Shown here: positions 386 through 58,184 of the stretch, in pieces
Layout: every line of letters starts with the position of its first letter
How positions within the stretch are numbered: position 1 is the stretch's first letter
NCBI GenBank assembly: GCA_951406725.2
Contig: OX597821.1
Span: forward strand, 98,518,001 to 98,582,000
Source of the DNA: Octopus vulgaris
Lineage: Eukaryota
DNA length: 64,000 nucleotides
Direction: 5' to 3'
Notes under the pieces: model-generated
Told to the model about the DNA's origin: nothing
Databases searched by the model: none
Seen by the model: only the letters and a program-made list of their open reading frames with translations
Translations under genes and position numbers: made by a program

Positions 386-535
386 ATTCTTGTTGTTGTT
401 ATTGTGTAAATATGTATATAATGAAAATATATATATATATTACAGAGATGTACTTGCATAGCAAGTGATTTGGTCTGAGATCGTGTGCTGGAACGAAAAC
501 AATTGCAGCATGGAAGGTGTTTGTAAGCCATTTAA

Positions 536-857
536 AGACTCTGCCGGTTACGACGACGAGGGTCCCAGCTGATACGATCAACGGAACAGCTTGCTCGTGA
601 AATTAACGTGCAAATGGCTGAGCATTCCACAGACACGTGTACCCTTAACGTAGTTCTCGGGGATAATCAGCGTGACACAGAGAGTGACAAGGCTGACCCT
701 TTGAAATACAAGTACAACTCATTTTTGCCAGCTGAGTGGACTGGAGCAACGTGAAATAAAGTGTCTTGCTCAAGGACACAACGCGTCGCCGGGAATCGAA
801 CTCACAACCTTACGATCATGAGCCGAATGCCCTAACCACTAAGCCACGCGCCCTCAC
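536..857 (-). mobile_element. tRNA-derived SINE (head B plus tail X) with 14-bp TSD
   Basis: Minus strand begins gagggcgcgtggcttagtggttaggg...gagttcgattccc (A/B boxes). TSD tgtaagccatttaa at 522-535 and 858-871. Confidence 0.85.
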
Positions 858-916
858 TGTAAGCCATTTAAGAAACACACAAAAGCTGTTTGATTCACTT
901 CAACATTTAAGTTTAA

Positions 917-967
917 TTTGTCAAAATATTTTCATTGCTATAAGACTGCGACCTGTTCACTGACAAA
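917..967 (-). ncRNA. Minimal type I hammerhead ribozyme, G3-C8 core variant (stem II partly decayed)
   Basis: Minus strand: tttgtca GTGAACA g gtcgc-agtcttata-gcaat GAAA atat TT tgacaaa. Confidence 0.55.
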
Positions 968-1496
968 AATCCGTGCTGCATATATACAATATATTTGTAT
1001 AAACATACTCACCTACATATACATACATATGAACACACTTATACACACACACACACACATATACATGCACACACACACATACATTCCTATATACATACAT
1101 AGACTTTAAGCTTTTTTGATTTTTGAAATTATTTCATTATTGTTTTTTTAAACATAAAAACATAAATTGAGCATTTGGATAAATTCCAGTTTGCAGAAAT
1201 TCTGCAGTGAGTTTATTAATACTTGCCATTCCACTTTGAAATAATACCTACATTATAACTTTTTTAATACCTATGCTATGAACCCAGCCTCCGCTCCAAC
1301 TCTCTAAAACTATCAACCACCAACCACTGTTCCACATAAAACTCATTAATTTATATATCTTCATCATTCACATGTAAAGGGATATGCACTAGAGTGTGGG
1401 GGGGGGGGGTTGTTCCAAGGAAAAGTTTATCCAGCTGTGTATGTGTACGTGTGTGTGTGTGTGTGTGTGTGTGTATCCATATTTCATTCTATAACA

Positions 1497-4331: not shown

Positions 4332-4459
<128 letters not shown>

Positions 4460-4490
4460 GAGCTGAGCGCAGATTGAACAGAAATCGTTT

Positions 4491-4584
4491 TATTTCATTC
4501 TACACGTGTTTCGAAAGGCACAAATTACCAAAATCCGATGGAATAATGGGACCATATTGTATCTTTCTCTTCAGGAAGAAAATA
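4491..4584 (-). ncRNA. Type I hammerhead ribozyme, mirror of 5487-5580
   Basis: Reverse complement of the + strand copy with one substitution in stem II. Confidence 0.8.
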
Positions 4585-5486
4585 GGAAATCCGTTGGAAA
4601 AACAAAAACAGAACAGAGGCGGAGCAAAAACAAATCGAACTATGCTCCTAAGAGCCCATGGCGAAACTGTTTATCAGTGTATGTTGAGAACCGGTGGCTG
4701 AAGAATTCAACGGGTCAGGCATCGGTCAATCATGTGGGTGAGGGGGCGTAGATGTTCTTTGTGACCGAGAATAAAGTTCTGACTATTTAAGGAATATTGG
4801 ATGTTTTATAAGGGGCGAGAAAAAATCTACTTAGAGACGTGTGTGTGTGTATACTGTTCTATATACGTGTGTGTTGGCGTAGGGGTAGAAAACATTTTTT
4901 GTGTACGTGTGTGCGTTTGATCGTTCGGCTGTCAGTGGCTACTGCCGTGATGACCGTTGGGTGGCAGAAAAAAAAATATACATCATGTTTTATGTGTGTG
5001 TGTGTTCTCATCTAAACCTGCCTTGTCAAGGAAACCCCCTTGACAAGGCAGGTTTAGATGAGAACACACACACACATAAAACATGATGTATATTTTTTTT
5101 TTCTGCCACCCAACGGTCATCACGGCAGTAGCCACTGACAGCCGAACGATCAAACGCACACACGTACACAAAAAAATGTTTTCTACCCCTACGCCAACAC
5201 ACACGTATATAGAACAGTATACACACACACACGTCTCTAAGTAGATTTTTTTCTCGCCCTTATAAAACATCCAATATTCCTTAAATAGTCAGAACTTTAT
5301 TCTCGGTCACAAAGAACATCTACGCCCCCTCACCCACATGATTGACCGATGCCTGACCCGTTGAATTCTTCAGCCACCGGTTCTCAACATACACTGATAA
5401 ACAGTTTCGCCATGGGCTCTTAGGAGCATAGTTCGATTTGTTTTTGCTCCGCCTCTGTTCTGTTTTTGTTTTTCCAACGGATTTCC

Positions 5487-5580
5487 TATTTTCTTCCTGA
5501 AGAGAAAGACACAATATGGTCCCATTATTCCATCGGATTTTGGTAATTTGTGCCTTTCGAAACACGTGTAGAATGAAATA
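5487..5580 (+). ncRNA. Type I hammerhead ribozyme with long stem II
   Basis: Stem I tattttcttc/gaatgaaata; CTGAAGA 5497-5503; stem II gaaag.a.cacaa...ttgtg.c.ctttc; GAAA 5559-5562; stem III AC-acgt-GT; GUA ending at 5570. Confidence 0.82.
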
Positions 5581-5924
5581 AAACGATTTCTGTTCAATCT
5601 GCGCTCAGCTCCATTTCTTCAATTCACCAATAATGTTCTAATTTCAATTATCCGCACCAACGCACGGTTGCAACACCATATGGTTGTACCTCCAACCGTG
5701 CTGTTTTACTGCTGTGATTTTTGCTACTAAGGTATCGGTTAAACTTTTGATTAATCTACTACAAGATTATTCATCTTTCTATTTCACATAATATATATAT
5801 ATATATATAAATATATATATATAAATATATATAAATACATATATATAAATACCTATATATATAAATACATATATATATACATATATATATATACATATAC
5901 ATATATATATACATATATATATAC

Positions 5925-5976: not shown

Positions 5977-6398
5977 ACGTAAAAGCACCATCCGTTCGTG
6001 TTCGTTGTCAGCCTCGGCTGGCCTCCGTGCCGGTGACACGTAAAAGCACCGTCCGTTCGTGGCCGTTTGCCAGCTCTGTCTGGCCCCGTGTCGGTGGCAC
6101 GTAAAAGCACCATCCGTTCGTGTCCATTGCCAGCATTGCCTGGCCCCGTACCGATGACACGTAAAAGCACCATCCGTTCGTGGCCGTTCGCCAGCTCTGT
6201 CTGGCACCTGTGCAGGTGGCACGTAAAAAACACCCGCTACACTCGCGGAGTGGTTGGCGTTAGGAAGGGCATCCAGCCGTAGAAACACTGCCAGATCTGA
6301 CTCGGCCTGACGAAGCCTTCCAGCTTCACAGACCCCAGTTGACCCGTCCAACCCATGCTAGCATGGAAAGCGGACGCTAAATGATGATGATGATGATG
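5977..6398 (+). mobile_element. (GAT)n-tailed retroposon (family R) with internal ~60-bp tandem module; other copies at about 6625-6868(+), 6891-7072(-), 25091-25430(-), 25917-26125(-), 32110-32430(-), 35028-35308(-), 37290-37500(+), 43239-43410(+), 48765-48920(+), 51227-51392(+), 51538-51633(+), 53382-53492(+), 57537-57858(+), 59205-59455(+), 61620-61758(+), 62120-62352(+)
   Basis: Shared 'ggagtggttggcgttaggaagggcatccagc...aacccatgctagcatggaaagcggacgttaaacgatgatgatg'; variable 5' truncation and simple-repeat tail. Confidence 0.85.
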
Positions 6399-6592: not shown

Positions 6593-7112
6593 TATTGTAG
6601 ACCCACATTCGTGCATTGCTTTGGCACATAAAATGCACCATCCGATTGTGGCCATTGCCAGCCTTGTCTGGCACCTGTGCCGGTGGCACGTAAAAAGCAC
6701 CCACTACACTCACGGAGTGTTTGGCGTTAGGAAGGGCATCCAGCCATAGAAACACTGCCAGATCTGACTAGGCCTGAGGAAGCCTTCTGGCTTCACAGAC
6801 CCCAGTTGAACCGTCCAACTCATGCTAGCATGGAAAGCGGACGCTAAATGATGATGATGATGATGATGAATATATATATATATATATATATCATCATCAT
6901 CATCATCATCGTTTAGCATCTGCTTTCCATGCTAGCATGGATTGGACGGTTCAACTGGGTCTGGGAAGCCAGAAGGCTGCACCAGGCCCAGTTTGGTCTG
7001 GCAGTGTTTCTATGGCTGGATGCCCTTCCTAACGCCAACCACTCCGTGAGTGTAGTGGGTGCTTTACGTGCCACCCACACACATATATATATATATATAT
7101 ATACATATATAT

Positions 7113-7244
7113 ATTTATTTTATAGAAGGAGCTTCTACAGGACTAGAACTGTTTCATTCAAATGAAATCATCAGGAAGCTTCCTGATGATTTCATTTGAA
7201 TGAAACAGTTCTAGTCCTGTAGAAGCTCCTTCTTTAAAATAAAT
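7113..7244. repeat. Near-perfect 132-bp palindrome centred on aagctt (7176-7181), made of two back-to-back HHRs (family D); unique tail runs to ~7310
   Basis: One mismatch between arms, no spacer, flanked by (TA)n. Confidence 0.92.
7177..7227 (+). ncRNA. Type I hammerhead ribozyme (mirror copy on minus strand at 7130-7180)
   Basis: agcttc CTGATGA t-ttc-attt-gaa-t GAA ACAG-ttctagtc-CTGT A gaagct: 6-bp stem I, 4-bp stem III, GUA site; U.U at the base of stem II. Confidence 0.75.
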
Positions 7245-7345: not shown

Positions 7346-7875
7346 CAGGCTGCTGGAGTTCTGCAATGCAAATGATCTTATGGTCTGCAATACCAACTCC
7401 AGGAAACCCACCTCTCTCCTAGTCACCTACCGTTCTGGCAGACACACTAGCCAAATTGACAACATCCTCACCAGAAAAAGGGAAAGAGGGCTGCTTATAA
7501 ATGCCAAAACCTTCCCAGGCGAAGAATGTACCCCTCAACATAGTTTAGTAGTTGGCGACTTCAGGATTAGTAGTTAGCGACTTCAGGATCAGGGCTGAAT
7601 GGATGACCAGAAGAAGACCAGCTTGGAGGAGAAGGGTCTGGAAGCTTAAAGATCCTGCAAATGGACTGAGATTTAGAGACATATTACTCAAAGCCGTCGA
7701 TGAAATAGAAGGGGATATAGCATCACATAATGTGGAAGACAACTGGAGGTTTCTACGGGACAACCTACTGAGAGCCACTGACCAGATCTGTGGCTGGTGC
7801 AAAGTCCCCTCTCGACCCAAGGTAACGGGGTGGTGGAACAATGTGGTTGACAGGGCTATTAGACAAAAGAAACTA
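7346..7875 (+). pseudogene. RTE-clade LINE fragment (APE endonuclease C-terminus and linker)
   Basis: RLLEFCNANDLMVCNT...VTYRSGRHTSQIDNIL...PGEECTPQHSLVV.DF...WKLKD...WWNNVV; frameshift caused by a 22-bp tandem duplication near 7546-7589. Confidence 0.85.
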
Positions 7876-7879
7876 TAGC

Positions 7880-8965: not shown

Positions 8966-9012
<47 letters not shown>

Positions 9013-9322
9013 ATATGTATATATCTATGTGTGTGTCTTTGTTTGTTCCACCTCCCAATTTTGCTTGACAACCGATGCTGGTGTGTTGACGTCTCCGTAA
9101 CTTAGCGGTTTGGCAAAAGAGTACTTGGCAAAATAAGTACTAGGCTTACAAAGAATAATCCTGGGCTTGATTTGCTTGACTATAGGCAGTGCTCCAGCAT
9201 GGCTGCAGTCAGACGACTGGAACAAGTAAAAGAATATGTATGTCATGTGTGTATGTGTTTGTGTCATCTCGTGTAGACATTATGTAATTACTGTGAGGTC
9301 AGTGAGCATCACCATCATAGAA

Positions 9323-9747
9323 CTCTCTTTACTCTTTTACTCTTTTACTTGTTTCAGTCATTTGACGGCGGCCATGCTGGAGCACCGCCTTTAATCGAGC
9401 AACTCGACCCCGGGACTTATTCTTTTTGTAAGCCCAGTACTTATTCTATCGGTCTCTTTTGCCGAACCACTAAGTAACGGGGACATAAACACACCAGCAT
9501 CGGTTGTCAAGCAATGCTAGGGGGACAAACACAGACACACAAACATGCACACGCATATATATATATATATATACATATATACGACGGGCTTCTTTCAGTT
9601 TCCGTCTACCAAATCCACTCACAAGGCATTGGTCGGCCCGAGGCTATGAGGCTATAGTAGAAGACACTTGCCCAAGGTGTCACAAAGTGGGACTGAACCC
9701 GGAACCATGTGGTTGGTAAGCAAGCTTCTTACCACACAGCCACTCCA
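9323..9747 (-). mobile_element. tRNA-derived CORE-type SINE (octopus OR2-like) with internal (TA/TG)n; other copies at about 8342-8545, 9025-9235, 10165-10718, 13803-14275, 27351-27720, 27805-28120, 30965-31280, 44350-44692, 47582-47973, 54683-54870, 59540-59950, 61116-61517 (+) and 11045-11590, 17275-18105, 40862-41150, 53105-53340, 62600-63030 (-)
   Basis: ggcgcaggagtggctgtgtggtaag...gggttcagtccc (A/B boxes), CORE-like accttgggcaagt, tail (gtaaaaga)n. The family name is recalled, not searched. Confidence 0.85.
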
Positions 9748-13285: not shown

Positions 13286-13580
13286 GTTTTTTTTTTTTGT
13301 ATTTATATTCGTATTACTTTTTGTTTTTTGTATTTATTTTCGTGTAACATCGTCCGTTTTTCTGTCCTTGTTTCGTATACATTCGATCCTTTTTCCAAGA
13401 AATCTAATGCTCGTAGCTTAGTTTTTCCTTGGGGCTGGCCAGATTGGAGCAATCTCAAGATTAATCAGCCGAAATTGCGAGGTGATCTGGTTCTTGACTG
13501 AAGATTAGCGGCTTCGAATGACCCGTCCGTTTTCGTATCGTCTATTTGAATGTTTTGCGTTCTTGTCCCATTTTATATAT
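13135..13580 (+). mobile_element. Unclassified microsatellite-embedded repeat (family F); also at 46785-46915(-) and as the fold-back at 53585-54295
   Basis: Shared 'agcttagtttttccttggggctggccagattggagcaatctcaag...aatcagccgaaattgcga...ttcttgtcccatttt'. Confidence 0.7.
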
Positions 13581-22825: not shown

Positions 22826-23252
22826 GGCGATCTTTCGTCTCTAGTAGACCTTTCCGTCGATTTCCGTAAAAAAATTTTTTTTTTTCACATATAGGCTTGC
22901 GGGAACTTTTGAAGTAATATACATACATATACACATACACCGAGTAAAAAATTTCAGTTATCTCTTTCTTTCACACATTACTCTGTCTCTTCACACACAC
23001 TAACAGAAGCACTTCACTTACACGACATACTGTCTGTCTCCCACACCCCATCAAACACACACACACACACACACACATGTACATCAATGCTCCCATGCAC
23101 GGTAACTTCAAAAGAACTTCCCTCGTCATACAATCGCTTTCTCTTAGTCTCTTTCGCTCTCATTACTTCAAAAGTTCCCGCAAGCCCATATGTAAAAAAA
23201 AAAAATTTTTACGGAAATCGACGGAAAGGTCTACTAGAGACGAAAGATCGCC
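22826..23252. mobile_element. MITE with ~92-bp TIRs and 8-bp TSD, Merlin-like
   Basis: TIR ggcgatctttcgtctctagtagacctttccgtcgatttccgtaaaa...ttttgaagtaat and its reverse complement; TSD gataaaag at 22818-22825 and 23253-23260; GG...CC termini. Confidence 0.85.
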
Positions 23253-29270: not shown

Positions 29271-29556
29271 GAGAGTAATTATGTGTGTGTGTGTGTGTAT
29301 TTTATGTATGTATGTTTGTGTGTGTGTGTACATATTTATGTATGTGTTGCGTGTGAATGTATGTATGTATAGGTGGCTGCTTGCAGTTTCAAACATGCCA
29401 TTGGTAATATGCCTAACCCTAGCCCCACTCAGAGAAAGCACCATCATAATTTTATATGTTTTGTACCCCCATTTCTTGTTAATGTTAGGACCTGTCCAAG
29501 TAGGATTTTCCTTATATTAGTAGGTAAGTGTTTTCCACAGGCACATAAATAGTGGA

Positions 29557-29779
29557 GATGTACTTGCATAGCAAGTGATTTGATCTGGGATCGTGTGCTG
29601 AAACGAAAACAATTGTAGCGTGGAAGGTGTTTGTAAGCCATTTAAGAAACACACAGAAGCCGTTCGATTCACTTCAACATTTAAGTTTAATTTGTCAAAA
29701 TATTTTCGTCGCTTTAAGTCCGCGACCTGTTCACTGACAAAGATGCAGCACGGATTTTTGTCAGTGAACAGGTCGTGGT
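29557..29779 (-). mobile_element. Family A HHR element with inverted terminal segment and 13-bp TSD
   Basis: TSD cataaatagtgga at 29544-29556 and 29780-29792; about 29743-29779 is an inverted copy of the element end, pairing with about 29723-29741. Confidence 0.85.
29691..29741 (-). ncRNA. Minimal type I hammerhead ribozyme, G3-C8 core variant
   Basis: Minus strand: tttgtca GTGAACA g gtcgc-ggacttaaa-gcgac GAA A-atat-T T tgacaaa; 7-bp stem I, 5-bp stem II, palindromic stem III loop. Confidence 0.68.
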
Positions 29780-30245
29780 CATAAATAGTGGAAAACTTTT
29801 AATAAACACTCTTTGAGGGCTTCCTTTAGCTGTGCATCCAGCATAAAGTAAATGCACGCAAACCAAACACAGAAGCAGGCTGTTTATGCAGAGGTAATGT
29901 CACATTTCCACTGACAATGTAACACAAAGGATGGTCGTGTATGTGGCTGTGGTAGCATCAAAGTATCCTGGTGGGTGACACAATTAGAGAGATATGTGGG
30001 TACAATGGAAGGGCCCTTCAAGACCATACTCAACTATCACAAATTCTCTTTTGAAATCCATGTGAAACCTGTGGCTATGGAAAGAAAATGCTGCACAATA
30101 TAACATAGAGTGGAGAAAGGCAGACCTTACATAAACAGCAGTAGGAGGTGCAAACTTGAAACCATTCAGTAACATGAATTGGCTGTTATAATGTGTGTAT
30201 GTGTATGTCTGTATGTGCATGTATGTTTATGTATATATATATATG

Positions 30246-30412: not shown

Positions 30413-32595
30413 ATGTTGTATGTATATATATATGTATGTATATATTTATATATATGTGTGTGTATTTTATACATTGATTGATTAATAGATCTATTTATAT
30501 TTCTTTGAGTGTTCTACACTAGCCAATTATATACTGGATACTAATGAGCTAATGACCACTATTTACATGATCTACATATGATATATATATATATATAGAT
30601 ATATAGAAGTGACAGATAGACCGATGGAGAGATATGTGTGTGTACACACACATACATACACACTCGCATATATAGTTTAAAATGATCATACTAATTAAAA
30701 ATGGCCATATATGGTGCATGTATATGCATAAATAAGGGTTGATTGTGAGTCACTACTCCATTTCATGTTCCTGGTCTCCAGATAAATGGTTACAAGATAG
30801 CTAACCTTTGGTCTACCCTGTGTGTCTTGTGTGACACACAGGCATCTTTTTCTGGTGTCCATGCATTATATGTGATGCACATTACCCATTTTGTTTCAAC
30901 CACCAGAATAACTTGGGACTTATCAAAACAAGGGCTAACTAAAAGTCTGAAAACAAATGTGGGCATACTATAGCCCCGGGCCGACCAAAGCCTTGTGAGT
31001 GGATTTGGTAGATGGAAACTGAAAGAAGCCCGTCATATATATGTATATATATATATATATGTGTGTTTGTGTGTCTGTGTTTGTCCCCCTAGCATTGCTT
31101 GACAGCCGATGCTGGTGTGTTTATGTCCCCGTTACTTAGCGGTTCGGCAAAAGAGACCGATAGAATAAGTACTGGGCTTACAAAAGAATAAGTCCCGGGG
31201 TTGAGTTGCTCGATTAAAAAAGGCAGTGCTCCAGCATGGCTGCAGTCAAATGACTGAAACAAGTAAAAGAGAAAGAGAGTATTTTATGAGAAACTTATGA
31301 AACTGCTTTAGATACCCAAGCTGAGATTGCTCAGTTTCTTATGAAACAAAATTTGTACTTAAATCATTTAGGAACTCCTAAAATACTGTCAGCAGTAAAA
31401 AAGATGTAACAATGTGTAATTGGGTTGGTAAGTAGGCGGGGTGTATGTTAATTAGATTGGGATAGTATAGTAGGGTTTGGTGAGAAATCTGTGTTTCAGT
31501 ATTTTCTTTTCATGTTAACTTTCATAGAAGATTTGATAGCTACTGTGCATAATTAGTTTGGAGTAGAGTGTTAAGTGGCTATAGTTTGTAGGTGCACGTG
31601 TGTATAGGTTAGTGGGGAAGGAGTTTCATTAACAGTTTATCTTTTAATGAATGCTTTGGTGTGATTGGTAATTAATAAGTGATAAGCGACTCCATTGATC
31701 ATTATTTCATGTGTGTGTTTGTGTGCGTGTACGTGTGTAGAATTTCTTTCAATTTGCCTAATGAAAATATTTGCAGGTCATTTACATAAAGGGATTGACC
31801 TTATTTTATATGCTGTTTGACAGAGCGTGAAAAATCAATTAATACGAGGTGTGACAGTTTGCAATAATGATGATAGGTTGAAACAAGACGGGGGGGGGGG
31901 GACCACTAGCGAAGTCAACAAAAATAATATGAAACTATTGATGTTTGATTAAGAAGCTCCCTTTGTTTTAGGTTCCGTCCTACTCATGGCACCTTTCTGA
32001 GGGAATTTTGGCAGATGGAAAGTCTGTGGAAGCCCAGTGATGTGTGTGTGTGTGCGTGTGTGTGGACAAACAGAAGAAATGGGCACTCAACACAATCAGT
32101 TGGAGTTACATCATCATCATCATCATCTTCATTTAGTGTCCACTTTCCATGCTGGCATGGGTTGGACGGTTCAACTGGGGTCTGGGAAGCCAGAAGGCTG
32201 CACCAGGCCCAGTCTCATCTGGCAATGTTTCTACGGCTGGATGCTCTTCCTAATGCCAACCACTCCGTGAGTGTAGTGGGTGCTTTTTTCGTGCCAGACG
32301 AGGCTGGCAAACGGCCACGATTGGATGGTGCTTTTTACGTGCCACCGGTACGAGGCCAGTCGGGGCGGCGCTGGCAACAGCCACGTTCGGATGGTTCTCT
32401 TACATACCACCAGCACCGGTATCACAGCTGCTAAAACAGTTTGATTCAGCTCGATGTAACTTAAAGTTTTGCAGGCCCCTAACAGAAACCTGTATCTTTC
32501 ACTCTTTAGATTTTGTAATCTAAAGCCTGAAAGAGATGGCCTTCTTTTAGAGGCCTGCGAAACTTGAAGTCGCATGGAACCGAATCAAACTATTT

Positions 32596-32939
32596 AACAT
32601 CGCCATCACTAGTGATCACTCCAAACACCATGATGTTGACTGGATGTTTGATTTTTAACACTCCTGGTACATGTTTCTTGCATTGTACTGTCCTCAGACT
32701 GACACCCAACACTCTGAAATGTTCATATTAGAACTTCCAGCATGACTGCCAAGCAGTACAGCATGTCATTTACAAATTTCTGACAGAGTGAATTGTGTCT
32801 TGGTGCTGTTTTTTCACAGACAGCGAGACAGTGCCCAACTGACCCTACTATACTGTGTAGTTCCCAAGATCAAACACAAACAATGTGCGTGCACAAAATT
32901 AAGAATATAAAATGGCAACAATTTACCCATCACACCCTG
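32596..32939 (-). mobile_element. Internally deleted Tc1/mariner (maT/DD37D-like) relic
   Basis: Minus strand starts TA|CAGGGTGTGATGGG; contains KHVPGVLKIKHPVNIMVFGVITSDGDV. Confidence 0.65.
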
Positions 32940-32959
32940 TATGTATATGTGTATATATG

Positions 32960-33015
<56 letters not shown>

Positions 33016-33029
33016 TACATACATACAAA

Positions 33030-34200
33030 AGTATGGCAAAAGTACCCACCACCCTAATTGCTGTTATAGAGAGACTCATAAAGATGTGGTCAACAGTTCT
33101 CACCCTTCCAACTGAGAACAGAATAATTGTTTCAGATAGTATAGGCATCTCAAAGGGAATATTCCAGGGAGATAGCCTTTCTGTACCTCTTTTCCTTTTG
33201 GCACTGAATCCATCATTGTTTCTGCTGCAGAAAACAAATGGTTACATGCTAGGATAGGCAACTGCTAGAAATATCAATGTAACTCATAATTTCTTTGTAG
33301 ACAACCTCAAGAGTTTTGCTAAAAGTGTTTACAATACCGAAAAACAACTGGTATTAATAACATTTTCAACTGATATAGGCATGGAATTTGGCCAAAAGAA
33401 ATGTTCGTATTTGCTTATAGAACAAGGAAAGTCTGTCCCCCAAACCCAAAATCTGTGCATCAACAGTCTCTCTGTCTTCCTCCATTCCACACAAAGAATG
33501 TACCTAGGCATAGATGAAAATGTATCATATGAAGGCACTGTGAATAAAGATAGAGTGACCCAAGAATATTACACCAAACTTAGGAAACTATGGCAATTGG
33601 AACTCTCCTCTTGCAATAAAATAATATCCCATAACACATTTGCAGTACCAGTGCTGATCCCAACATTTGGGATACTTGATTGGTCTGTAGAGGAAATCCA
33701 CTCCATAGATATCAAAACCCACAAAATCCTGATAACAACTGGGAACTTCCACAGAAACAGTCATGTTGACAGGCTCTACCTAAGAAGAGATGAAGGCAGT
33801 AGAGGCCTGAGATCTGTGCAGATGGCCTTCGAATGCTGTATGTTATTACTCAGGCAGCACCTGCTGAATAACAGCATCAAAAATAAATATATAAATGCAG
33901 TGCTGAAAAGTGAAGTGAGTAACATTGTACGAATTGGCAGTGAGGTCCTCGAGAAGCACTCTCTCCCTGATGGGGTTTTGTTAATAAATGCTTGAAGGAG
34001 AATCTGGGTAAACTGGGATTTTCAAAAAGAGAAATCGACCAGCTAATTCGTACATTACAAGTGCAATCTGTGAGTGGAACAGTAAAAATATGCAAGACTT
34101 TTCTCAAGTTTCAAGTATGAATTTGTCTGTGTTAACTACATCTCAAAGATGGAGTCTTGTCTCATTGCTCGAAACTGGCTCCCTCCTCAGTGGAAGATTT
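33030..34200 (+). pseudogene. R4/Dong-like non-LTR retrotransposon RT fragment joined to its C-terminus
   Basis: GIFQGDSLSVPLFLLALNP...HNFFVDNLK...DIGMEFGQKKC...YLGI...AVPVL...VDRLYLRRDEGSRGL, then CLKENLGKLGF...VSGTVKICKTFLKFQV*; 5' end abuts a (CA)n/(CATA)n tract. Confidence 0.85.
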
Positions 34201-41164: not shown

Positions 41165-41790
41165 TCATTTCATTTCATCTAGTTTCAGCTCACGAGCTGT
41201 GGCCATGCTGAGGCACTGCCATTTGGTGTTGCTACATGATTTTACTTCACGAATGCTTCTTTTAGCAATTGACATTTGGTGCATAAGAGAGTTTGATGCA
41301 GCTGCCCTCATCTGCACTTCCTGCTGTGAAGTTGATTCATTTGGGACACCTGACAGGAAGAGGTCCAGCTTTATTTTGAAGACACCTACATCCACACCAT
41401 GCAGATCTCTCAGCTTCTTCGGAAGGATACTGAAGAGCTGTGGACCTCTGAAGCTCAGGCTATTGCAGTATCTTGTCCTACATCTTGATGGCAAATTTGG
41501 AGTCCTTGGCACCATGCAGTGGCGCCCAGTTCTAGTATTTGTGTAACTCCCGATGCCAAAGTTTGGGACAAGTCCTTCCAGATGTATATTATGGATGTAT
41601 ATTATGGCATATCTTTCTCACCTACGCTCTAAGGAATAGAGTCTTAATCTCTTGAGTCTTCCCCAATAGCTTATATGCTGCATAGAGGCTATCTTCTTCG
41701 TGTAGCTTCGTTGGATTGCCTCAAGTTCTGAGATTAATTTGACACTGGACACTGGATGGTGACCATAGCTAAAAGCAATAGTCAAAGTGG
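41165..41790 (-). pseudogene. CR1-group LINE 3' end
   Basis: Post-RT region ...LRLYSLERR.ERYAII...GLVPNFGI...RTGRHC...YCNSLSFRGPQLFSILPKKLRD...FKIKLDLFL...NSL. Confidence 0.8.
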
Positions 41791-42570: not shown

Positions 42571-43459
42571 ATACATATATAAATGTTTGTATGTATGAGC
42601 ATGTGTTTGTGTCCCTTTGTCTTCAATTTGTATGATAGTTGTAAATGAATGTCACTATCATATAGAGTCATTCATTTCTAATATTCATTGTAAATATGAC
42701 AGACCATGGGAAAATATTACCTTGCTGGTTGGCAACTGGAAGAGCATCTAGTCATAAAAATCTGCCTCAATAAACTCCATCCAACCCATGCATACATGGA
42801 AAAGTGGATGTTAAAACAATATTGATGATGATGATGATGATGATGATTGTATGTTAAAAGAATATAAATAAAAACAGAAAACAAGCTATTGATATTTCAG
42901 ACACATTATTACATATGTTTTAATAATCTATCAGTAAATTGATTATTGATATATTTTTGGTATTGTCATCTGATGATATGATTGATAATCAATTTAATTA
43001 TTGATTATTAAAACTTACGTAATGAAATATCTGAAATATCAGTAACTGGTTTTCTGTTTTTTGTGCTTTTAAACTATATTTGGCTCTTGTTACTACACTA
43101 TAACCTGAGTCTTTATTGACACTTCATTGACAGCATTATACTGGTGTGAGAGTTTAATATAGCTGGAAACTTGAACACCAGTTTTCTATGATGACTTGTG
43201 CATTCAGTGCATCAAGAACTATATATATATATATATATTGGTGTTAGGAAGGGCATCCTGGCGTTTGGAAGAGCATCCAGCTGTAGAAACTCTGCCAGAT
43301 CAAGATTGGAGCCTGGTGCAGCCATCTAGGTCGCCAGCCCTCAGTCAAAATCGTCCAACCCATGCTAGCATGGAAATCGGACGTTAAACGATGATGATGA
43401 TGATGATGATATATATATACACATATATACATATGCACATATACACATATATGTATATA

Positions 43460-44345
43460 TGAGGTGTATTCAAAAAGTATTCTACTTTATATTTTCCCAC
43501 CAAAACTTGTGCCACGTGGGCAAAATCCTGTATGTAGGAGGTAACACCACCCTTCTTGTGCATATATGAAAATTTTCATGCTGTTAAGCCTAGAGTACAG
43601 ATGTGTGGTGCACACTCATCAGATTTTCATTTCCATGCAACGTGACCAAATGCATTGAGCAGAGATGATAAACCCATGTCTCATCACCGTTGATGATAGT
43701 CTTCATGAAGTCTGGGTTGGGGTTTACATAGTCCAGCATGTCCTGAGTGAGTGCCATGCAAAGATACTTCTTCTGCTCTGCCAGCACCTTGGAAACAAAT
43801 TCCACCACCACTCTCCGCATACACAAACCCTTCATTAAAATGGAATGCACTGATCCTGGGCTTATTCCCACTTTGTGAGCAGTTTCCTCGATTGTTACAC
43901 AATGGTCTTCCATAACTATTGGCTGAACTTTTCCAGTTGGCTCCTCATTTCGGCTTGCGGATCACTTGCCTGAGCATGTGACCACTGAGGTGTGACCATG
44001 TATGCTGCAGTTGTACAACTCTTTGTTCTGAATTATGTCCATGGCATTATTGCCTGACGCCTGTTGAATCTTCTGGACTGTTTCAACATCAGTGTCACCA
44101 AGCTTTCAGCAAAACATAATAAAATATCTCTGCTTGATGCATTTGATGCAAATGGAAATCTGGTGAGCATACACTACACATCTATATTCTAGGTGTAACA
44201 GCCAGGAACTGACGAGGCCTATTGGTGCAAAAATTTTCATGCATGTACAGAAAGGGTGACGTCACTGGCCACCCAGAGGATTTTGTCCACGTCACATTGG
44301 TTTTGGCAGAAAAAATAAAGTTAGATGCTTTTTGAATGCACTTTG
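43460..44345 (-). mobile_element. Rearranged mariner element: 5' half of transposase flanked by two inverted 5' ends (~210 bp)
   Basis: ORF 43590-43913: ...VGISPGSVHSIL...FVSKVL...DFMKTIINGDETWVY; 43460-43670 is a diverged reverse complement of about 44125-44345. Confidence 0.82.
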
Positions 44346-44749: not shown

Positions 44750-45676
44750 CATTTACCATTCAAGTTGCAGCTCTTATTTAGTAATAACATTAAACTCCCA
44801 ACACTGTGTCATGCCAAAGGGTTCTGTGTGACCTGAGAAGGGCTATAATGCACTATAAACATCAATAAGAAGAGAGAAATACATGAGCACGAACACGACA
44901 TTCTTTGATTACCTCTGTTACATATATTTCAGTATTTGGTAATTAATGCTGTCACACTATAACTGCAGTGCATAAATACAACTCATAAATTGCATCTATG
45001 GATTGCATTTATATGTAGTGTGACATCATTAATTAATTACCTATTATTGAAACATGTGTAGAGAATCCTACAAGCATGATACGGATTCGATCCACCATAG
45101 CGAAATTTAAATCAACATGGCTACAGAACTTTTCCCACGGCGGAACAATGGTTTTTCTCTCACAGCAGTTTTTACATTTTCCAGATGCCTTTTAGCTAGG
45201 CCAAAATAATGTCTTCACCACTTGACCCTTTCTAACCTCTTCTACTTCACCAAAAGCTAGAATAGATAACAAGACCACCAACTAAACTTATTGTTCTCAA
45301 CGATATATCTATCTTTCTGGATCTTAATATAAGCAAGCACATCCCAAGCAAAAATCAGTTAATCACCAGCCGGGTGACGACTCGGCAGTTAGTCACCACT
45401 CAGTGACAACTCAGGGAGAACGTAGTCTGGCTGACCAGCTACAATCTTGGCCAGAGAGAGAAATGAAGTATACTCTTTAGCTCTAATTCTGTCCCTTACA
45501 ACATCATTCTATCTCTCTTTGTAATTACTACTATCTATTTGTATACGTAAAACTATGGAATGAAAAGAACCAAACTTCGCATGCTTTTGGATGTATCAAC
45601 CTGCCCGTCAAGGCTAGGTATTTGTAACGTAAAAGTAAATAAATTAATTTCTTAAAACTTTATGTACTTTTATCTT

Positions 45677-46528
45677 TCACATGATCTTCATCGATGCCTC
45701 CACCAAGTTTGGAGATGGTCTAACGAATGGGACCTGTGTCTGAACGTGTCAAAGTGCTGTCATCTGCCTGTTGGCTCTTCTCCTGCAACTCAACTTGATT
45801 TCGAGCCAGGTCGTCTGCTGCTGGGGAGGACCGACCAGGTAAAGGACCTGGATATCTTGGTGGATTCTTCCTTTTCGCCTTTGGCCCAGTGCGTCCATGC
45901 TGCCAACAAAGCATGCGGAGTTCTGTTTTTGATTCGACGGTTATTCGGAATGTTCACAGCAGCCATATTCCTACCGCTCTATGTCACGCTGGTGAGACCC
46001 ATATTGGAGTACGGGATTCAAGCCTCTTCTCCTTATCTCCTCAAAGACATACATCATCTTGAAAGAGTCCAGAAGCTGGCTACCCACATGGTTCTTGGTC
46101 TCAAGCATTTGCCTTATGAAGAAAGGCTTATGAAGACGCTCGACCTTTATTCTCTAGAAAAACGATGATGCCGTGGTGATCTCATTCTCGCTCACAACAT
46201 CATAAGCGGAAAGTGTAACCTCTCGAAATAGCTGTTCTTCACTCCTGCTTCAGAGCGTCGGCTGCGGGGTCACTCTGAAAAGCTCTATCTGCAACGATTT
46301 CATCTCAATCGAAGGAGAGGGGCTTTCTCCGTCCGGGTTGCGGATCCGTGGAATAAGCTGCTGGACGAGATAGTGAAGATGCCGACGACCACTCGGTTCA
46401 AGGTCTCTCTTGACCAGAAATGGCCTGAACTCTTTGCATGAACACCCTCCCTGTACATAACTCCATGTCCCCCTACATGGCCTTGCTTTTTGCTTTTTGA
46501 GCCAAAAAATTAACTTAACTTAACTTAA
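45677..46528 (+). pseudogene. 5'-truncated CR1-group LINE with (ttaac)n tail; second 3' fragment at about 50605-50742
   Basis: WSNEWDLCLNVSKC...VKDL...LYVTLVRPILEYG...LERVQKLAT...YEERL..LDLYSLEKR**RGDLI...LRGH...FSVRVADPWNKL. Confidence 0.88.
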
Positions 46529-46764: not shown

Positions 46765-46917
46765 GTATGTATAAAAAATATATATAAAAATACAAAATGG
46801 GACAAGAACGCAAAACATTCAAATAGACAATACAAAAAACGGATGGGTCATTTGAAGCCTCTAATCTTCAGTCAAGAACCAGATCATCCTCGCAATTTCG
46901 GCTGATTAATCTTGATA

Positions 46918-46946
<29 letters not shown>

Positions 46947-46948
<2 letters not shown>

Positions 46949-48560
46949 CAGGTCATTAAGAATGAAATGTTTGATTTTCTTATGCACTAAGTTTGACAGT
47001 CATTGACTATAATGTTTTATCCTTTGTTTTACAACATTGAAGAGTCACATCATCACTTTTCAAAATGCAATTCATGATGTCTGATTATATTGTGAGCTTT
47101 CTCTTATCAATTAATTTTTGTGAACCCATGGATAGAGCAAAAATTCATGTTGTTTATTAATATGAATTCCGTTGTGGAACCAATGTGTCCCACACAACTC
47201 AAAACATCAGTGAGGAAGTAAAATGTGGTGAATGAGTGCACTGCACATCGATGGTTTGAGAAGTCCTGACTGGTAGACCTGAGACAAAGGTAGATAATGA
47301 TGAGCTGGAAACTGTAGTGGAGGCAGGTACATCTCAAACTATGCATGAGTTAGGATCAAGGTTTGATGTTTTGATTTCAATGGTATTGGACCATCTGAAA
47401 CAAATCGACAAGGAGCTGAATAAGTGGGTACCACACAAACTGAACGAGCATCAAATAATACATCATCTTGAAACTTGCTATTCTTTGCTGTAATTGCATA
47501 AAAGCAAACCATTTTTGCATTGTATTGTAATGTTTGATGAAAAATGGATTCTTTTCAACACCTGCAAGCATTCTGCACAGTGGCAGGAGTGGCTGTGTGG
47601 TAAGTAGCTTACTAATCAACCAAATGGTTCCAGGTTCAGTCCCACTGCATGGCATCTTGGGCAAGTGTCTTCTGCTATAGCTTCGGGCCGACCAATGCCT
47701 TGTGAGTGGATTTGGTAGACGGAAATTGAAAGAATCTTGTCGCATATATGTATATATATATATATGTGTGTGTATGTGTTTGTCCCCCTAGCATTGCTTG
47801 ACAACCGATGCTGGTGTGTTTATGTCCCCGTCACTTAGTGGTTCAGCAAAAGAGACTGATAGAATAAGTACTGGGCTTACAAAGAATAAGTCCCGGGGTC
47901 GATTTGCTCAACTAAAGGCGGTGCTCCAGCATGGCCGCAGTCAAATGACTGAAACAAGTAAAAGAGTAAAGAGAGTGGTTGGATAGAGATGAAATGCCAA
48001 AACACAATCCAAAAAAGAATATTCACCAAAAAATTCTAATGGTGTCTGTTTGGTAGTCCAGCACTGGTGTCATCAATTACAGCTTCATGAGACCTGGTAA
48101 GTCAAATTACAGCAGATGTATACATCAATCAACTGGATAAAATGATGAGTAAACTTGCAATTAAACAACAGGGATTGGTCAATAGAGACAGGCCAATTCT
48201 CTTGCAAGACAATGCTTGACAATCTGTTGCGCAAAGAATGTTACTCATGTTACAGGAACTGAACTTGGAAGTACTCTCTCATCCACCATATTCACCAGAT
48301 CATGTACTAATGTTTTCCAGGTATTAGACAACATTTTGCAAGGTAAAACTTAAAATCTGAAGAAGATGTAAAAATAGCCTTTTGTGATTTCATCACCGCT
48401 TGCTCCCCAGAATTCTTCGCTGCCAGCATAAATAAGCTACCGATAAAATGGCAAAACTGTGTTGATAATTTAGGTGCATACTTTGATTAACTGTTTTTTG
48501 TTGAGATAAAGTAAAATAAACTTTCAGTTCAAAATTGGACATTTCATTCTTAACGACCTG

Positions 48561-48562
<2 letters not shown>
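46947..48562 (+). mobile_element. Full-span decayed mariner transposon interrupted by a SINE (47582-47973)
   Basis: TIRs atcaggtcattaagaatgaaatgt / acatttcattcttaacgacctgat in (TA)n; motifs WVPHKL, PFLHCIVMFDEKWI, LQDNA, HPPYSPD. Confidence 0.92.
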
Positions 48563-48616
<54 letters not shown>

Positions 48617-48916
48617 CAGGTCATTATGAATGAAATGTCCAATTTATATATATATCTACATGGTAAATTGTGAATTTTATTTTTTGAAGCCATACCAGAA
48701 AGTGAAGAGAATGCAAGTGAATAGCAGCAAGTGTCTTAAAAATTATCCTGGCACATGAAAGTACCCACTGTTTGGCATTAGGAAGGGCATCCAGCCATAG
48801 AAACCATGCCAAATCAGAAAGGAGTCTAGTGCAGCCTTCCAGCTTGCCAGCCCTGGTCAAACCATTCAACCTATGCCACCATGACAACAGTCATTAAATG
48901 ATGATAATGATGATGA

Positions 48917-49489: not shown

Positions 49490-50420
49490 CAGGATACATT
49501 TGGTATTTGTAAACTAATTATTTAGCAGTCCACAAATGGGAGTCAACGTAAAAGTGCCAAATTATAACTTTATCTTTTAGACATATCTGCTGCATCAACA
49601 TAGCAGGTTGCTGTCTGACACAGAAAATGAAAAAAGCATGGTGTGTTCATAGCTTTTGGCCACCAATTACAATGACTTGAAAATCACTAGCTTCTTGTAT
49701 GCAGTTAGGTCTTTCATATTCAGTGTCAAGAGTGGAGGTGCAATGACCCAGTGGTTAGGGCAGCGGACTCGCGGTCATAGGATCGCGGTTTCGATTCCCA
49801 GACCGGGCGTTGTGAGTGTTTATTGAGCGAAAACACCTAAAGCTCCACGAGAGGCTCCGGCAGGGGATGGTGGTGATCCCTGCTGTACTCTTTCACCACA
49901 ACTTTCTCTCACTCTTACTTCCTGTTTCTGTTGTACCTGTATTTCAAAGGGCTGGCCTTGTCACTCTCTGTGTCACGCTGAATATCCCCGAGAACTACGT
50001 TAAGGGTACACTTGTCTGTGGAGTGCTCAGCCACTTACACGTTAATTTCACGAGCAGGCTGTTCCGTTGATTCGGATCAACCGGAACCCTCGTCGTTGTA
50101 ACCGACGGAGTGCTTCCTATTCAGTCTCAAGAGCTGAAGGCATCAGCAGGGACATGTCATTGAAAGGAAAGATTAAGAAACACTCTCAGCTGTCAGACAT
50201 CATTAGAAACGTCAATTTTGGCCTGCAGATTCATGATATCATCAACTACAGTCCCAACAGGCCAATGAAGACTGTCACCAAGCAGGAATCCAGTATCAGA
50301 TTTCTGGTGAATGAAAACTCCAGTCATAAGCTTTATGTGATGAGCAGAGGATAGCTCTTGTCTGGCAAGACCTAGGAGGACTGTGTGATCATGTAACATA
50401 AAGCTTTCTAACTTTGATCT
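49490..50420 (+). pseudogene. Decayed maT/Tc1-like transposase N-terminus, split by a SINE
   Basis: ...EMKK.../...SPNRPMKTVTKQESSIRFLVNENSSHKLYVMSRG*LLS, resembling the recalled pattern P..SMR...E.TIR..V.ED...KSYVM.RG. Confidence 0.55.
49733..50117 (+). mobile_element. tRNA-derived SINE (head A plus tail X)
   Basis: 16-bp TSD tattcagt(g/c)tcaagag at 49717-49732 and 50118-50133. Confidence 0.9.
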
Positions 50421-53513: not shown

Positions 53514-53584
<71 letters not shown>

Positions 53585-54295
53585 TAAATACAAAATGGGA
53601 CAAGAACGCAAAACATCCGGACAGTTAGGTGATACAAAAATGGGACAACAAAACATCCAGATAGACAATACAAAGAAAACAAGGACTGGTCATTCAAAGT
53701 TTTCTTTCCTCAGTCAAATACCAGATTATCTTCGCAATTTCGGCTGATAATACTTGAGATTGCTCCAATCTAGCTAGCCCCAAGAAAAAACTAAGCTAAG
53801 AGCATTTAGATTCCTTGGAAGAAAGCAGCAAATGTATGCAAAAACAAGGACGGGAAAAAATGAACAATGTTACACAAAAACAATAAAAATAATAACAGGA
53901 CATAGCAACGGTGTCTTTCGACTAAGGATGAATTAAATTAAGCTGGTGTGAGCTTAGTCGAAAGACACCTGTTGTTATGTCCTCTTATTATTTTTATTCT
54001 ATTTGTGTAACATTGTCCTTTTTTTTCCGTCCTTGTTTTTGTATACATTCACTGCTTTCTTAAAGGAATCTAAATGCTCTTAGCTTAGTTTTTCCTTGGG
54101 GCTGGCCAGATTGGAGAAATCTCAAGTATAATCAGCCGAAATTGCGAAGATAATCTGGTACTTGACTGAGGAAAGAAAACTTTGAATGACCAGTCCTTGC
54201 TTTCTTTGTATCGTTTATCTGGATGTTTTGTTGTCCCATTTTTGTATCACCTAACTGTCCGGATGTTTTGCCTTCTTGTCCAATTTTGTGTTTTA
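53585..54295. repeat. Fold-back of family F: ~340-bp inverted arms (53585-53926 / 53953-54295), 26-bp spacer, in (TA)n
   Basis: Arms are reverse complements with scattered substitutions. Confidence 0.9.
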
Positions 54296-54357
54296 TATAC
54301 ATATATATATATGTGTGTGTGTGTGTGTGTATAGCAGTGTACGTACACTTTGGTCTT

Positions 54358-55485: not shown

Positions 55486-55862
55486 AGTTCAGCAACAATT
55501 TAGATTCAAATGAATATGGTACTTAATTTAGATGCACCAGAATTTTGTATGGTGTTATCCATAAAAATTTGCGGGGTGATTATAATAAAAAATAAGCAAA
55601 AAGAATGACTCCAGTAATTTGGTACAATTGTTTCGCACTACAACATTTTATTAAAAGTTGTAAGTATTACAGCAGATTTAATATGTTGAGTGCTCTTCAG
55701 CCAATTATATAGGTTTTCCAATGTATTATTGGAAAATCTATATAATTGGCTGATGAGTACTCAGCATCTTAAATCTGCTGTAATACTTACAAACATTTAA
55801 TAAAATGATGTAGTGTGAAACAATTGTACCAAATTACCGGAATCATTCTTGTTGCTTATTTT

Positions 55863-55865
<3 letters not shown>
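55484..55865. mobile_element. Fold-back Penelope-like element (family I): arms about 55587-55722 / 55728-55863 plus a unique extension on the left, in (TA)n
   Basis: Centre ttttccaat-gtatt-attggaaaa; HHR in each arm. Confidence 0.82.
55619..55704 (-). ncRNA. Type I hammerhead ribozyme (mirror on + strand at 55746-55832)
   Basis: Minus strand: ttgg CTGAAGA gcact...agtgc GAAAC aatt GTA ccaa; plus strand: ttgg CTGATGA gtact...agtgt GAAAC aatt GTA ccaa. Confidence 0.85.
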
Positions 55866-55904
<39 letters not shown>

Positions 55905-56558: not shown

Positions 56559-57095
56559 ATAATAATAATAATAATAATAATAATGAAATTATTGTATATA
56601 GTGCTCAGGTGCACCACAACTTGTCAGAAAGTGCGTATAAATTATATGCAGTAATGTACAAATGTCTGGAAAGCGAACAATGTATGAGTCAGATACATGC
56701 TTGTGTGTGTATGGAGGGGAGAAAATCAGGTGTAGTGTTGGCGAATCTCAGGAAGCATGGAAGTTTTGAAGGATGCAGTGCTCCGACAACTAACAACTGA
56801 TGCCGGTAGTTTGTTCCATGCTTCAGCAACTCTCAGCGTGAAAAGATGTTTCCTAAAGTCATGGGAGCTGTGCTGTTTTCTGACTTTGTAAATATGCCCA
56901 CGGGTGTTAGACGGGTGGAGTTTGAAAAAGTGCTCAGAGTTATTGTTTGTAAGATGGTTGATAATTTTAAGGGTGTCTGCCAAGTCAGCTGCTAGACGTC
57001 GGAGTTTCAATGTATCCATGCCCAGGGAAGTAAGGCATTCAGAATATGGCAAATGCCTTATGGAGGGTATTCTTTTGGTTGCACGTTGCTGAACT
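56559..57095 (-). pseudogene. 5'-truncated CR1-group LINE with (att)n tail; older relative fragmented by SINEs at about 61040-61990
   Basis: QQRATKRIP...LPYSECL..LGMDTLKLRRLAADL...TRGHIYK...RKHLFTLRVAEAWNKLP. Confidence 0.85.
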
Positions 57096-58184
57096 ATTGT
57101 TGTTTGACTATTTCAAACAACATCACTTAGGAAACATTCTCAAAGTACATTTAGTAAAAGGAAGATAGAAGAAACAAGTCTACCAACATTTTATGGTCTC
57201 TCTTAGGTATACTGTATATTGTAAAATGATGGATAGCAATAATAATGATAGTAGGAAAAACCCAGTAATAAATGTAATGTGAGTAACCTGGAAGAATAGG
57301 GGTGATGGCTAGCAGTACGTAAGAGTGATGGTAGGGAATAGTGAATAGAAAGAAAGACAATGCTAGCCCTCATTACACAGGTGTTGTGATGGAAGAGAGG
57401 TAGTACAAAAGGCAGTGAGTATGAACATATCTGATGTCATTCTTTGTAACACAAGGCAGCGTGGTACAGTGACGAGAAGGTAATAAAAGAAGGTGTAGGA
57501 AACTCAACAAGAGCATACTGGGTAAGAGACCTAAATGTGTGCCGGTGGCACGTAAAAAGCACCATCCGATTGTGGCTGTTTGCCAGCCTCGCCTGGCCCC
57601 CGTGCCGGTGGCATGTAAAAAGCACCATCCAATCGTGGCCGTTTGCCAGCCTCGTCTGGCACCTGTGCCGATGGCATGTAAAAAGCACCCACTACACTCA
57701 CGGAGTGGTTGGCGTTAGGAAGGGCATCCAGCTGTAGAAACGTTGCCAGATCAGACTGGGCCTGGTGCAGCCTTCTGGCTTCCCAGACCCCAGTTAAACC
57801 GTCCAACCCATGCTAGCATGGAAAGCGGACGTTAAACGATTATGATGATGATGATGATTGCACTGCCCTGTCTCCATAGCTACCACCCTTTTAGTGTATT
57901 TTGCAATGTTTGCATAGGTGGGTTGATTGACCTTCTCCAGCACATACCCCACCACTCGTCATAGGTTTTGCCATCTCCGTTCTGAGATTCAACACCTTGG
58001 GATCACTCCTTACCACTTCATACCATGCTTAGGTGTCCCTCTTCTACAGGTTCCATCCACTGTGAGTGCTCAGTACTGCTGTAAGCAACTGGCATCCTCT
58101 ATTCAAATCAGATACCCATTTTCTCTCATGCACACTACATCTGAAACCTCTTAAATGCAACTTTGGTCTTCTTCTCTCTGTTTC

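Follow-up and report, generated by a model that had tools for sequence, protein, structure and literature searches.

A short hammerhead-bearing, PLE-like unit with an inverted 5' stub and a 13-bp target-site duplication in Octopus vulgaris

Minimal hammerheads that occur singly at dispersed sites and are related to truncated Penelope-like elements (PLEs) have been reported to be common in animal genomes (PMC4209133), and it has been argued that short hammerhead repeats derive from PLEs and are non-autonomous (bioRxiv 10.64898/2026.07.22.740005, PMC7229834, PMC6765202). In rotifer PLEs, the pLTRs have a size of 193-218 bp, they are present in inverted and in solo form, and the target-site duplications (TSDs) measure 8-10 bp (PMC3846280). 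Here we analyze a locus at positions 29544-29792 of a stretch of Octopus vulgaris DNA of 64,000 nucleotides, which as a whole is referred to as the window. This locus shares with solo and inverted pLTR insertions of EN+ PLEs, such as Pen2/Pen3 of the rotifer Adineta vaga, a unit of about 200 bp, a head-to-head inversion at the 5' side and a short spacer, as well as a TSD that encloses the insert as a whole and siblings that lie in TA-rich targets (PMC3846280, PMC8557442). There are also differences: the TSD is 13 bp long instead of 8-10 bp, an ORF-bearing parent was not found, and the published inverted copies are truncated at their 5' side and keep the 3' end, whereas the stub described here keeps its 5' end and stops in loop II. 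Of the features of EN+ PLEs, a minimal type-I hammerhead, in which the core is of a variant G3-C8 kind, and a 5'-side head-to-head inversion are present, and a 5'-truncated inverted copy that has kept its 3' end is absent. As to the partial tandem (direct pLTR) arrangement and the optional tail of 30-40 bp of such elements, neither of the two copies described below is tandem, and both have one and the same 3' end. An earlier note on this DNA had pointed, in connection with the stub, to the inverted, truncated pLTR that PLE insertions often show at one end. A canonical inverted PLE copy is 5'-truncated with its 3' end kept (PMC8557442, PMC8969392); the stub is 3'-truncated, its 5' end is kept and sense positions 37-200 are missing, so that a canonical inverted pLTR is not supported.

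The hammerhead motif itself resembles the minimal hammerheads of metazoan PLEs in that its 5' side is rich in U and its 3' side in AU, stem I is short, stem II is preceded by an extra nucleotide, a G10.1-C11.1 pair is present and a palindromic stem III would lend itself to the formation of dimers, and it departs from the PLE consensus only at positions 3/8 and in having an extra G (PMC4209133). Its UUU triplet is also present in the Crassostrea PLE row of the supplementary alignment of that study, and the Nasonia row has a G at the same extra position. Counted by eye, 41 of the 44 rows considered from that alignment have a C3-G8 pair, two have U3-A8 and one has U3-G8; G3-C8 is found in none of them.

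Two other systems are relevant for the way in which the insert may have arisen. In twin priming, a single RNA is primed by both ends of the target, by the second one at an internal site through chance complementarity, and the two cDNAs are joined by microhomology (PMC2912911); an internal duplication was found in 283 of 1,703 5'-inverted L1 insertions, with a median of 22 bp (bioRxiv 10.1101/2024.08.27.596794). The locus resembles the products of L1 twin priming in that an inverted 5' segment lies next to a TSD, the outer end and the junction both show microhomology, and about 22 nt are duplicated (PMC2912911; bioRxiv 10.1101/2024.08.27.596794). Unlike L1 insertions, it has no poly(A), its template would be non-coding and 200 nt long, the stub reaches the apparent 5' end, and the element is not an L1. 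Among the papers listed that name both 'twin priming' and 'Penelope', no paper is devoted by its title to twin priming by PLEs. The second system is the Anolis PLE protein Poseidon_Ac (PAc), which nicks and extends both strands, starts reverse transcription internally and uses uncleaved RNA; its RT start lies 111-118 nt into the ORF, and RNA out to nt 172 is required (PMC11167929). Priming on both strands, an internal RT start downstream of the hammerhead and an uncleaved template would be common to PAc and the locus described here. However, the RT start of PAc is located about 85-92 nt past the cut (a distance that we derived from the numbers in PMC11167929), as compared with 143 nt here, and the two strands have one start site in common in PAc, whereas the second start would here lie inside loop II.

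Non-LTR retrozymes have in common with the locus a short non-coding unit with a type-I hammerhead and a proposed dependence on PLEs, as well as dispersed monomers and TSDs of more than 4 bp (PMC7229834; bioRxiv 10.64898/2026.07.22.740005). They differ in that here there is no head-to-tail tandem and no end at the cleavage site, and in that the hammerhead is minimal and not canonical. An assignment to the retrozymes was rejected because neither of the two loci described below is tandem: no tandem array over either of them was found in the window comparison.

The insertion and the 200-nt unit

The two copies of the TSD (Table 1) are exact; the 13-mer can be extended on neither side and occurs nowhere else in the window on either strand, and the flanks of the insert are likewise unmatched elsewhere in the window. 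When pairs of sites 223 bp apart were placed at random, with slack at the breakpoints, a repeat of at least 13 bp was obtained in 4 of 2997 placements whose flanks were complex and, overall, in 48 of 4000 placements. Being exact, unique in the window and rare by chance, the 13-bp TSD proposed in the earlier note stands.

Table 1. Features of the insertion, of the second copy of the unit and of related fold-backs (positions within the window)
Feature	Position	Strand	Remarks
Left TSD copy, 13 bp	29544..29556	+	exact direct repeat
Right TSD copy, 13 bp	29780..29792	+	
Forward arm, unit sense positions 14-200, 3' end at 29555	29555..29741	-	BLAST against the window
6-bp hairpin ending 7 nt before the unit 3' end	29562..29576	-	candidate RT start or recognition structure (putative)
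Minimal type-I hammerhead motif	29691..29741	-	own descriptor and minimum-energy fold
Proposed internal priming site in loop II, sense 37-42	29713..29718	-	5/6 match
Head-to-head inversion junction	29742..29744		2-nt microhomology and one substitution, or 2 extra nt
Inverted stub, unit sense 1-36	29744..29779	+	34/36 identical to copy B
Copy B of the 200-nt unit, both ends present, no inversion, interrupted by a nested insert	445..980	-	
Insert nested in copy B, from another repeat family	536..871		own 14-bp TSD, 522-535 / 858-871
Symmetric head-to-head fold-back, arms 572/573 identical, 6-nt spacer	4458..5613		C3-G8 hammerhead in both arms
Symmetric head-to-head fold-back, no spacer	7113..7244		each arm with a C3-G8 hammerhead motif
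Symmetric head-to-head fold-back, 130/142 identical, 5-nt spacer	55581..55871		C3-G8 hammerhead in both arms

A BLAST search of the locus (hereafter A) against the 64-kb window revealed a single other copy, copy B. The forward arm of A and copy B are 93% identical, with 13 differences in 187 columns, 11 of which are transitions. Both loci have the same 3' end, at 29555 in A and at 445 in B, and the right end of copy B, which is followed by TA-rich sequence, coincides exactly with the start point of the stub of A. Because the 3' end is shared, and the 5' end is shared by the stub and copy B, we conclude that at these two loci the unit has two reproducible ends and a length of 200 nt. The size of about 220 bp that had been given for the unit thus fits the insert, which measures 223 bp, and not the unit itself, which according to copy B has 200 nt. 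The unit has no terminal inverted repeats, no simple-repeat tail and no poly(A) at its 3' end, which adjoins the TSD with a 2-nt overlap: the last two nucleotides of the left TSD copy are also the end of the element as seen in copy B, a microhomology that would have served the first primer. Copy B is located in TA-rich simple sequence and has no discernible TSD, the best candidate being 7 bp of TA repeat. The repeat nested in copy B has at least three further partial copies in the window. It is SINE-like, with other copies near 15706, 28161 and 49930-50111, and its head is presumably tRNA-derived; ARAGORN called no tRNA gene in the window. For the 200-nt unit, the possibility that it is a Pol III (tRNA-derived) SINE was rejected: it has no tail, no tRNA gene was called, and it contains a run of five Ts at sense positions 12-16, which argues against a Pol III SINE.

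Along the ribozyme-sense strand of A, with positions numbered from the end of copy B, the order is TSD, antisense 36 to 1, junction, sense 14 (or 11) to 200, and TSD. At the junction, two 5' ends of the ribozyme-sense strand therefore meet, head to head at the 5' side, and sense 11/14-36 is present twice, so that 23-26 nt of the forward arm are duplicated in the stub. Thus, the insert does end in an inverted partial copy of itself, as the earlier note had it, and the resulting hairpin (29690-29790) folds at z = -8.7. Two other ways of reading this arrangement were rejected. With the sense on the plus strand, the 3' end would be buried at the junction, and after a simple snap-back of the first cDNA the 13-nt spacer would be oriented as the forward arm, whereas it is oriented as the stub.

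The six element bases that follow next after the stub match the first six bases of the TSD at five positions, and at four when the loop sequence of copy B is used. Matches of this quality to the primer end occur at only 3 of 182 unit positions, the outer end of the stub among them; as background, 425 of 63,800 6-mers in the window match the element continuation equally well. In the predicted fold, the outer end of the stub falls in loop II of the ribozyme. The mapped ends (sense 1, 11-14, 36 and 200) do not include the predicted cut at sense 57/58; the 3' end lies 143 nt beyond it, and both copies, A and B, read through it. Thus, the TSD and the geometry of the insert, the ends that are shared, the microhomologies and the anatomy of the motif can all be read from the DNA as it stands.

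The earlier note had further argued that removal of the insert restores an underlying reading frame. However, the frame that it quoted is open for just 20 codons over the junction, with a stop shortly upstream, and stretches open for at least 23 codons hold about 69% of the codon positions of the window. In addition, Pfam had no match in 121 scanned open stretches, a selection from the 188 that passed the filter, which included several that flank the insert. Based on this, we dropped the reading-frame argument. Position 29522, about 20 nt upstream of the TSD, holds the only exact AG/GTAAGT donor-like 8-mer of the window, after an acceptor-like pyrimidine tract. It is possible that 29489-29529 contains a host micro-exon of 35 nt, in which case the insertion would be intronic; there is no protein support for this exon.

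Searches for the ORF of a parent PLE with proteins, Pfam and the Atlas were all empty or at chance level, and in the three frames searched the unit has no recognisable ORF, such as one for the telomerase-like RT plus GIY-YIG endonuclease of EN+ PLEs. The 63-codon minus-strand frame had 0 matches among 1.84 billion representatives and 0 of 5 candidates among longer proteins, the 52-codon plus-strand frame gave no candidates in the protein search, and the one candidate for the ATG frame starting at 29642 was not upheld. Pfam assigned no family to the two unit frames that were among the 14 proteins scanned, and the Atlas matches for the unit frames scored 0.80, which is the chance level. No copies of the unit were found in GTDB, plasmids or phages, as expected for an animal repeat. 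On the minus strand of 29556-29744, one frame is open through the whole forward arm (63 codons) and has two stops in copy B, and at 29556-29642, on the same strand, a 29-codon ATG frame runs off the 3' end in both copies. Either or both of these frames, for which no homologues were found, may possibly be a remnant of the start of a parent ORF.

A hammerhead motif with a G3-C8 core

The motif comprises a stem I of 7 bp (29735-29741 with 29691-29697), a core with G3 at 29734 and C8 at 29729 and one extra G ahead of stem II, and a stem II of 5 bp (29722-29726 with 29708-29712) that carries loop II (29713-29721). Stem III is formed by six self-complementary nucleotides (3 bp, palindromic) and is followed by the UUU triplet; a G-C closing pair and GAAA are also present. 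Cleavage is predicted between 29698 and 29697, which corresponds to sense 57/58. In the minimum-energy fold of the minus strand, a stem I of 7-8 bp surrounds the 5-bp stem II (z = -3.0). A Watson-Crick 3-8 pair, GAAA and an NUH triplet (UUU) at a predicted three-way junction, as expected of a hammerhead core, are all found. G3-C8 replaces C3-G8 in all three sequence instances (A, B and the stub) at the two loci, and the departures from the consensus at positions 3 and 8 compensate each other, the pair still being Watson-Crick.

Our first descriptor produced a match of like quality in none of 20 shuffles and weak matches in six of them; it had flaws, as it gave a spurious match in a TG microsatellite at 52898 and missed motifs with a long stem. 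A relaxed descriptor, which was devised after the fold-backs had been inspected, gave seven matches in the window and none in 10 shuffles, the minus-strand motif of A being the top-scoring one. At gathering scores, Rfam gave no match for the insert. At E up to 10 there were 11 Rfam matches, none of them to a hammerhead family, all of them below gathering and mostly to hairpins of miRNA models, which we discarded as artefacts of the fold-back. Since Rfam is silent, the hammerhead call depends on our own descriptor.

Copy B keeps G3 and C8. Its stem II is broken by CpG-type changes that are not compensated, and the motif fold is lost; with three instances in all, the changes in copy B damage stem II rather than provide covariation in its support. 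According to structure prediction, the hammerhead core would pair with the stub in the sense transcript of A, and its fold would be blocked. Because of this predicted pairing, the ribozyme of copy A is probably inactive. Co-folding of a dimer gave a swapped stem I pairing instead of an intermolecular stem III and was uninformative.

In engineered ribozymes, the double change C3G/G8C partly brings activity back (PMC11167929, PMC8495972, PMC3884650), and a natural U3-A8 covariation has been reported (PMC4209133, PMC3088659). The accessible parts of the literature searched contain no natural G3-C8 hammerhead; the survey by Lunse et al. may already hold such cores, and that a G3-C8 core would be new for natural hammerheads is unproven. 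If it proves to be family-wide, the G3-C8 core would be the natural counterpart of the classic compensatory mutant, and such a core escapes standard CUGANGA descriptors and Rfam.

How the insertion may have arisen

The view of the earlier note that a short PLE-like unit with a hammerhead was inserted here in the manner of a retroposition is supported. As to the mechanism, we consider it rather probable that the insert was made by twin priming of a PLE-type RT/endonuclease on uncleaved RNA, with an internal duplication. We infer the polarity of the RNA from the ribozyme strand and from the end that adjoins the TSD, and the involvement of a PLE enzyme from the motif, the head-to-head polarity and the lack of a tail. 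The length of the TSD is no guide to the enzyme, because another repeat family has left a 14-bp TSD inside copy B. The absence of any mapped end at the cut site of the ribozyme, whose activity is likewise a matter of prediction, argues for uncleaved RNA as the template.

The order of events would then be as follows. A retroelement RT/endonuclease, most likely of a PLE, would nick the target with a stagger of 13 nt and use as its template an uncleaved RNA whose first 200 nt are the unit. The 3' end of the plus strand would prime at the usual start of the family, 143 nt downstream of the predicted cut, and copying would proceed towards the 5' end of the RNA. The 3' end of the minus strand would anneal in the single-stranded loop II of the hammerhead, with 5/6 pairs, and copy 36 nt to the RNA 5' end. 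Finally, a microhomology of about 2 nt would serve to connect the two cDNA ends in a head-to-head manner, and after filling-in the product would be a TSD, an inverted 5' stub and a duplication of 23-26 nt. As expected of twin priming, a TSD is indeed present together with an inverted 5' segment that has microhomology (5/6) to the target at its outer end.

The earlier note had favored a template switch, and a template switch would be expected to leave the identical final sequence. The cDNA would in that case reach about sense 11-14, jump to the 3' end of another completed cDNA and copy 36 nt, after which it would be joined to the far target end by microhomology. The stub does begin exactly at the 5' end of the unit, and for non-LTR elements it has been proposed that 5' joins may be made by template jumping (PMC2912911). 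However, a second free cDNA and a separate joining step are required, and twin priming accounts more directly for the outer-end microhomology and for the duplication of 23-26 nt, which is why we prefer it and regard a template switch as unlikely. It is also conceivable, if improbable, that a symmetric PLE fold-back was formed and that a microhomology-mediated deletion later removed about 165 bp from its inverted arm. Such deletions are known in PLE copies (PMC3846280), and the symmetric form is the commoner one here, accounting for three of the four hammerhead-bearing inversions. The 5/6 match is equally compatible with this scenario; indeed, that a later deletion, or microhomology joining, would predict the same microhomology is a weak point of twin priming, as is the number of loci, one of them inverted and two altogether. 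On the other hand, one breakpoint of the deletion must hit the first base of the TSD exactly, and far longer near-perfect palindromes, such as the one with arms identical at 572 of 573 positions, persist in the window.

Twin priming is best documented for L1, and this raises the alternative that a PLE-derived, SINE-like unit was moved in trans by a LINE-type enzyme, the inversion being the outcome of ordinary LINE twin priming. The TSD of 13 bp is near the 14 bp of the nested repeat and above the 8-10 bp of the rotifer PLEs. Nevertheless, the 3' end that adjoins the TSD has neither poly(A) nor a simple-repeat tail, elements mobilised in trans are rarely 5'-inverted (PMC2912911), and both the motif and the head-to-head polarity are PLE-like; we therefore give this alternative little credence. 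That the hammerhead is coincidental, the unit being a non-autonomous DNA element (MITE/Helitron-like) with chance stems and an inversion due to DNA repair, seems very improbable to us. It would be in line with the lack of a hammerhead match in Rfam, the two conserved core positions that are off consensus, the absence of the motif fold in copy B and the small hairpin near one end. However, the G3 and C8 departures are mutually compensatory in 3/3 instances, none of the 20 shuffles held a match of like quality, and terminal inverted repeats are absent. Furthermore, Helitrons do not generate a TSD, and the TSDs of cut-and-paste elements usually measure 2-11 bp.

Returning to twin priming by a PLE-type enzyme, the RNA could come from a short non-autonomous master or be the 5' end of a full-length PLE transcript, and we hold these two sources to be about equally likely. 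If the behavior of PAc applies to this locus, short copies that extend from the start of the RNA as far as the RT start would already be made from a full-length transcript, and these would be without part of the recognition sequence. An internal RT start on full-length PLE RNA could thus give the same short copy (PMC11167929). Mobilisation of the short unit 'on its own' is therefore not established by this locus, nor is the locus the 'direct evidence' for it that the earlier note saw.

Significance, and other fold-backs in the window

In its behavior, the locus would qualify as a PLE-like retrocopy, with formal membership hinging on the parent. A single locus adds little, since short hammerhead-bearing PLE fragments, inversions and TSDs have all been described. 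Three features set the locus apart from the published descriptions considered here: its G3-C8 core, the geometry of twin priming in a unit of the PLE type and the apparently fixed 5' end, each at one or two loci. What follows first-strand synthesis in PLE integration still awaits validation (PMC11167929). A short family in which the ends are fixed and a clean TSD is seen now and then would be a good natural substrate for the study of second-strand priming and 5' joining, because most sibling insertions lie in microsatellites, where TSDs are invisible. It is possible, but doubtful, that the locus belongs to an abundant, non-autonomous PLE derivative with a fixed length of 200 nt and a fixed G3-C8 pair that uses uncleaved RNA and primes its second strand in loop II. 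If so, PLE inversions would be of two kinds, symmetric and twin-primed as in L1, and from the many copies of the family one could read where RNA 5' ends, RT start sites and exposed RNA loops are located in vivo.

The earlier note had linked the insertion to fold-backs elsewhere in the window. We listed 38 local inverted pairs and examined 11 fold-backs, three of which carry a hammerhead in both arms, pointing outwards, and have one end against a TA repeat. Six of the seven matches of the relaxed descriptor fall in these three (4458-5613, 7113-7244 and 55581-55871). The link thus holds for the hammerhead and the head-to-head polarity that these 3 of 11 share with the insertion. It does not extend to their sequence, for which BLAST within the window gave no relatedness to the 200-nt unit, nor to their form, which is symmetric, and at least two of the 11 (6676-7081 and 8990-9581) are back-to-back copies of dispersed repeats. 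The fold-back at 42870-43061 has a degenerate hammerhead core in one arm, and in the remaining five no hammerhead core was found. Altogether, at least four hammerhead-bearing families are present within 64 kb.

The fold-back at 4458-5613 is a near-perfect palindrome of 1.16 kb with a long-stem-II hammerhead motif in each arm; it is probably a young PLE-type head-to-head insertion, the alternative being an assembly artefact. Another fold-back, at 53567-54312, is flanked by TA and has arms of 360 bp and a spacer of 26 nt; no hammerhead core was found in it, and related sequence is located near 13321-13574 and 46778-46918. Older or shorter fold-backs are present at 42870-43061, 32434-32595, 44919-45060, 61748-61801 and 48532-48645, the last of which is centered on a TA repeat.

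Several open stretches of the window, at 32784-33995, 45656-46168 and 56726-57112, and likewise at 41165-41617, 7552-7878 and 43590-43961, had no significant Pfam match; they resemble decayed coding fragments of the LINE or mariner type. Tandem arrays with units of 61-63 bp, at 5977-6228 and 57539-57689, are part of an abundant dispersed repeat family. Finally, at 22826-23252 there are two inverted arms of 93 bp that are 96% identical and about 245 bp apart, an arrangement that is MITE-like.
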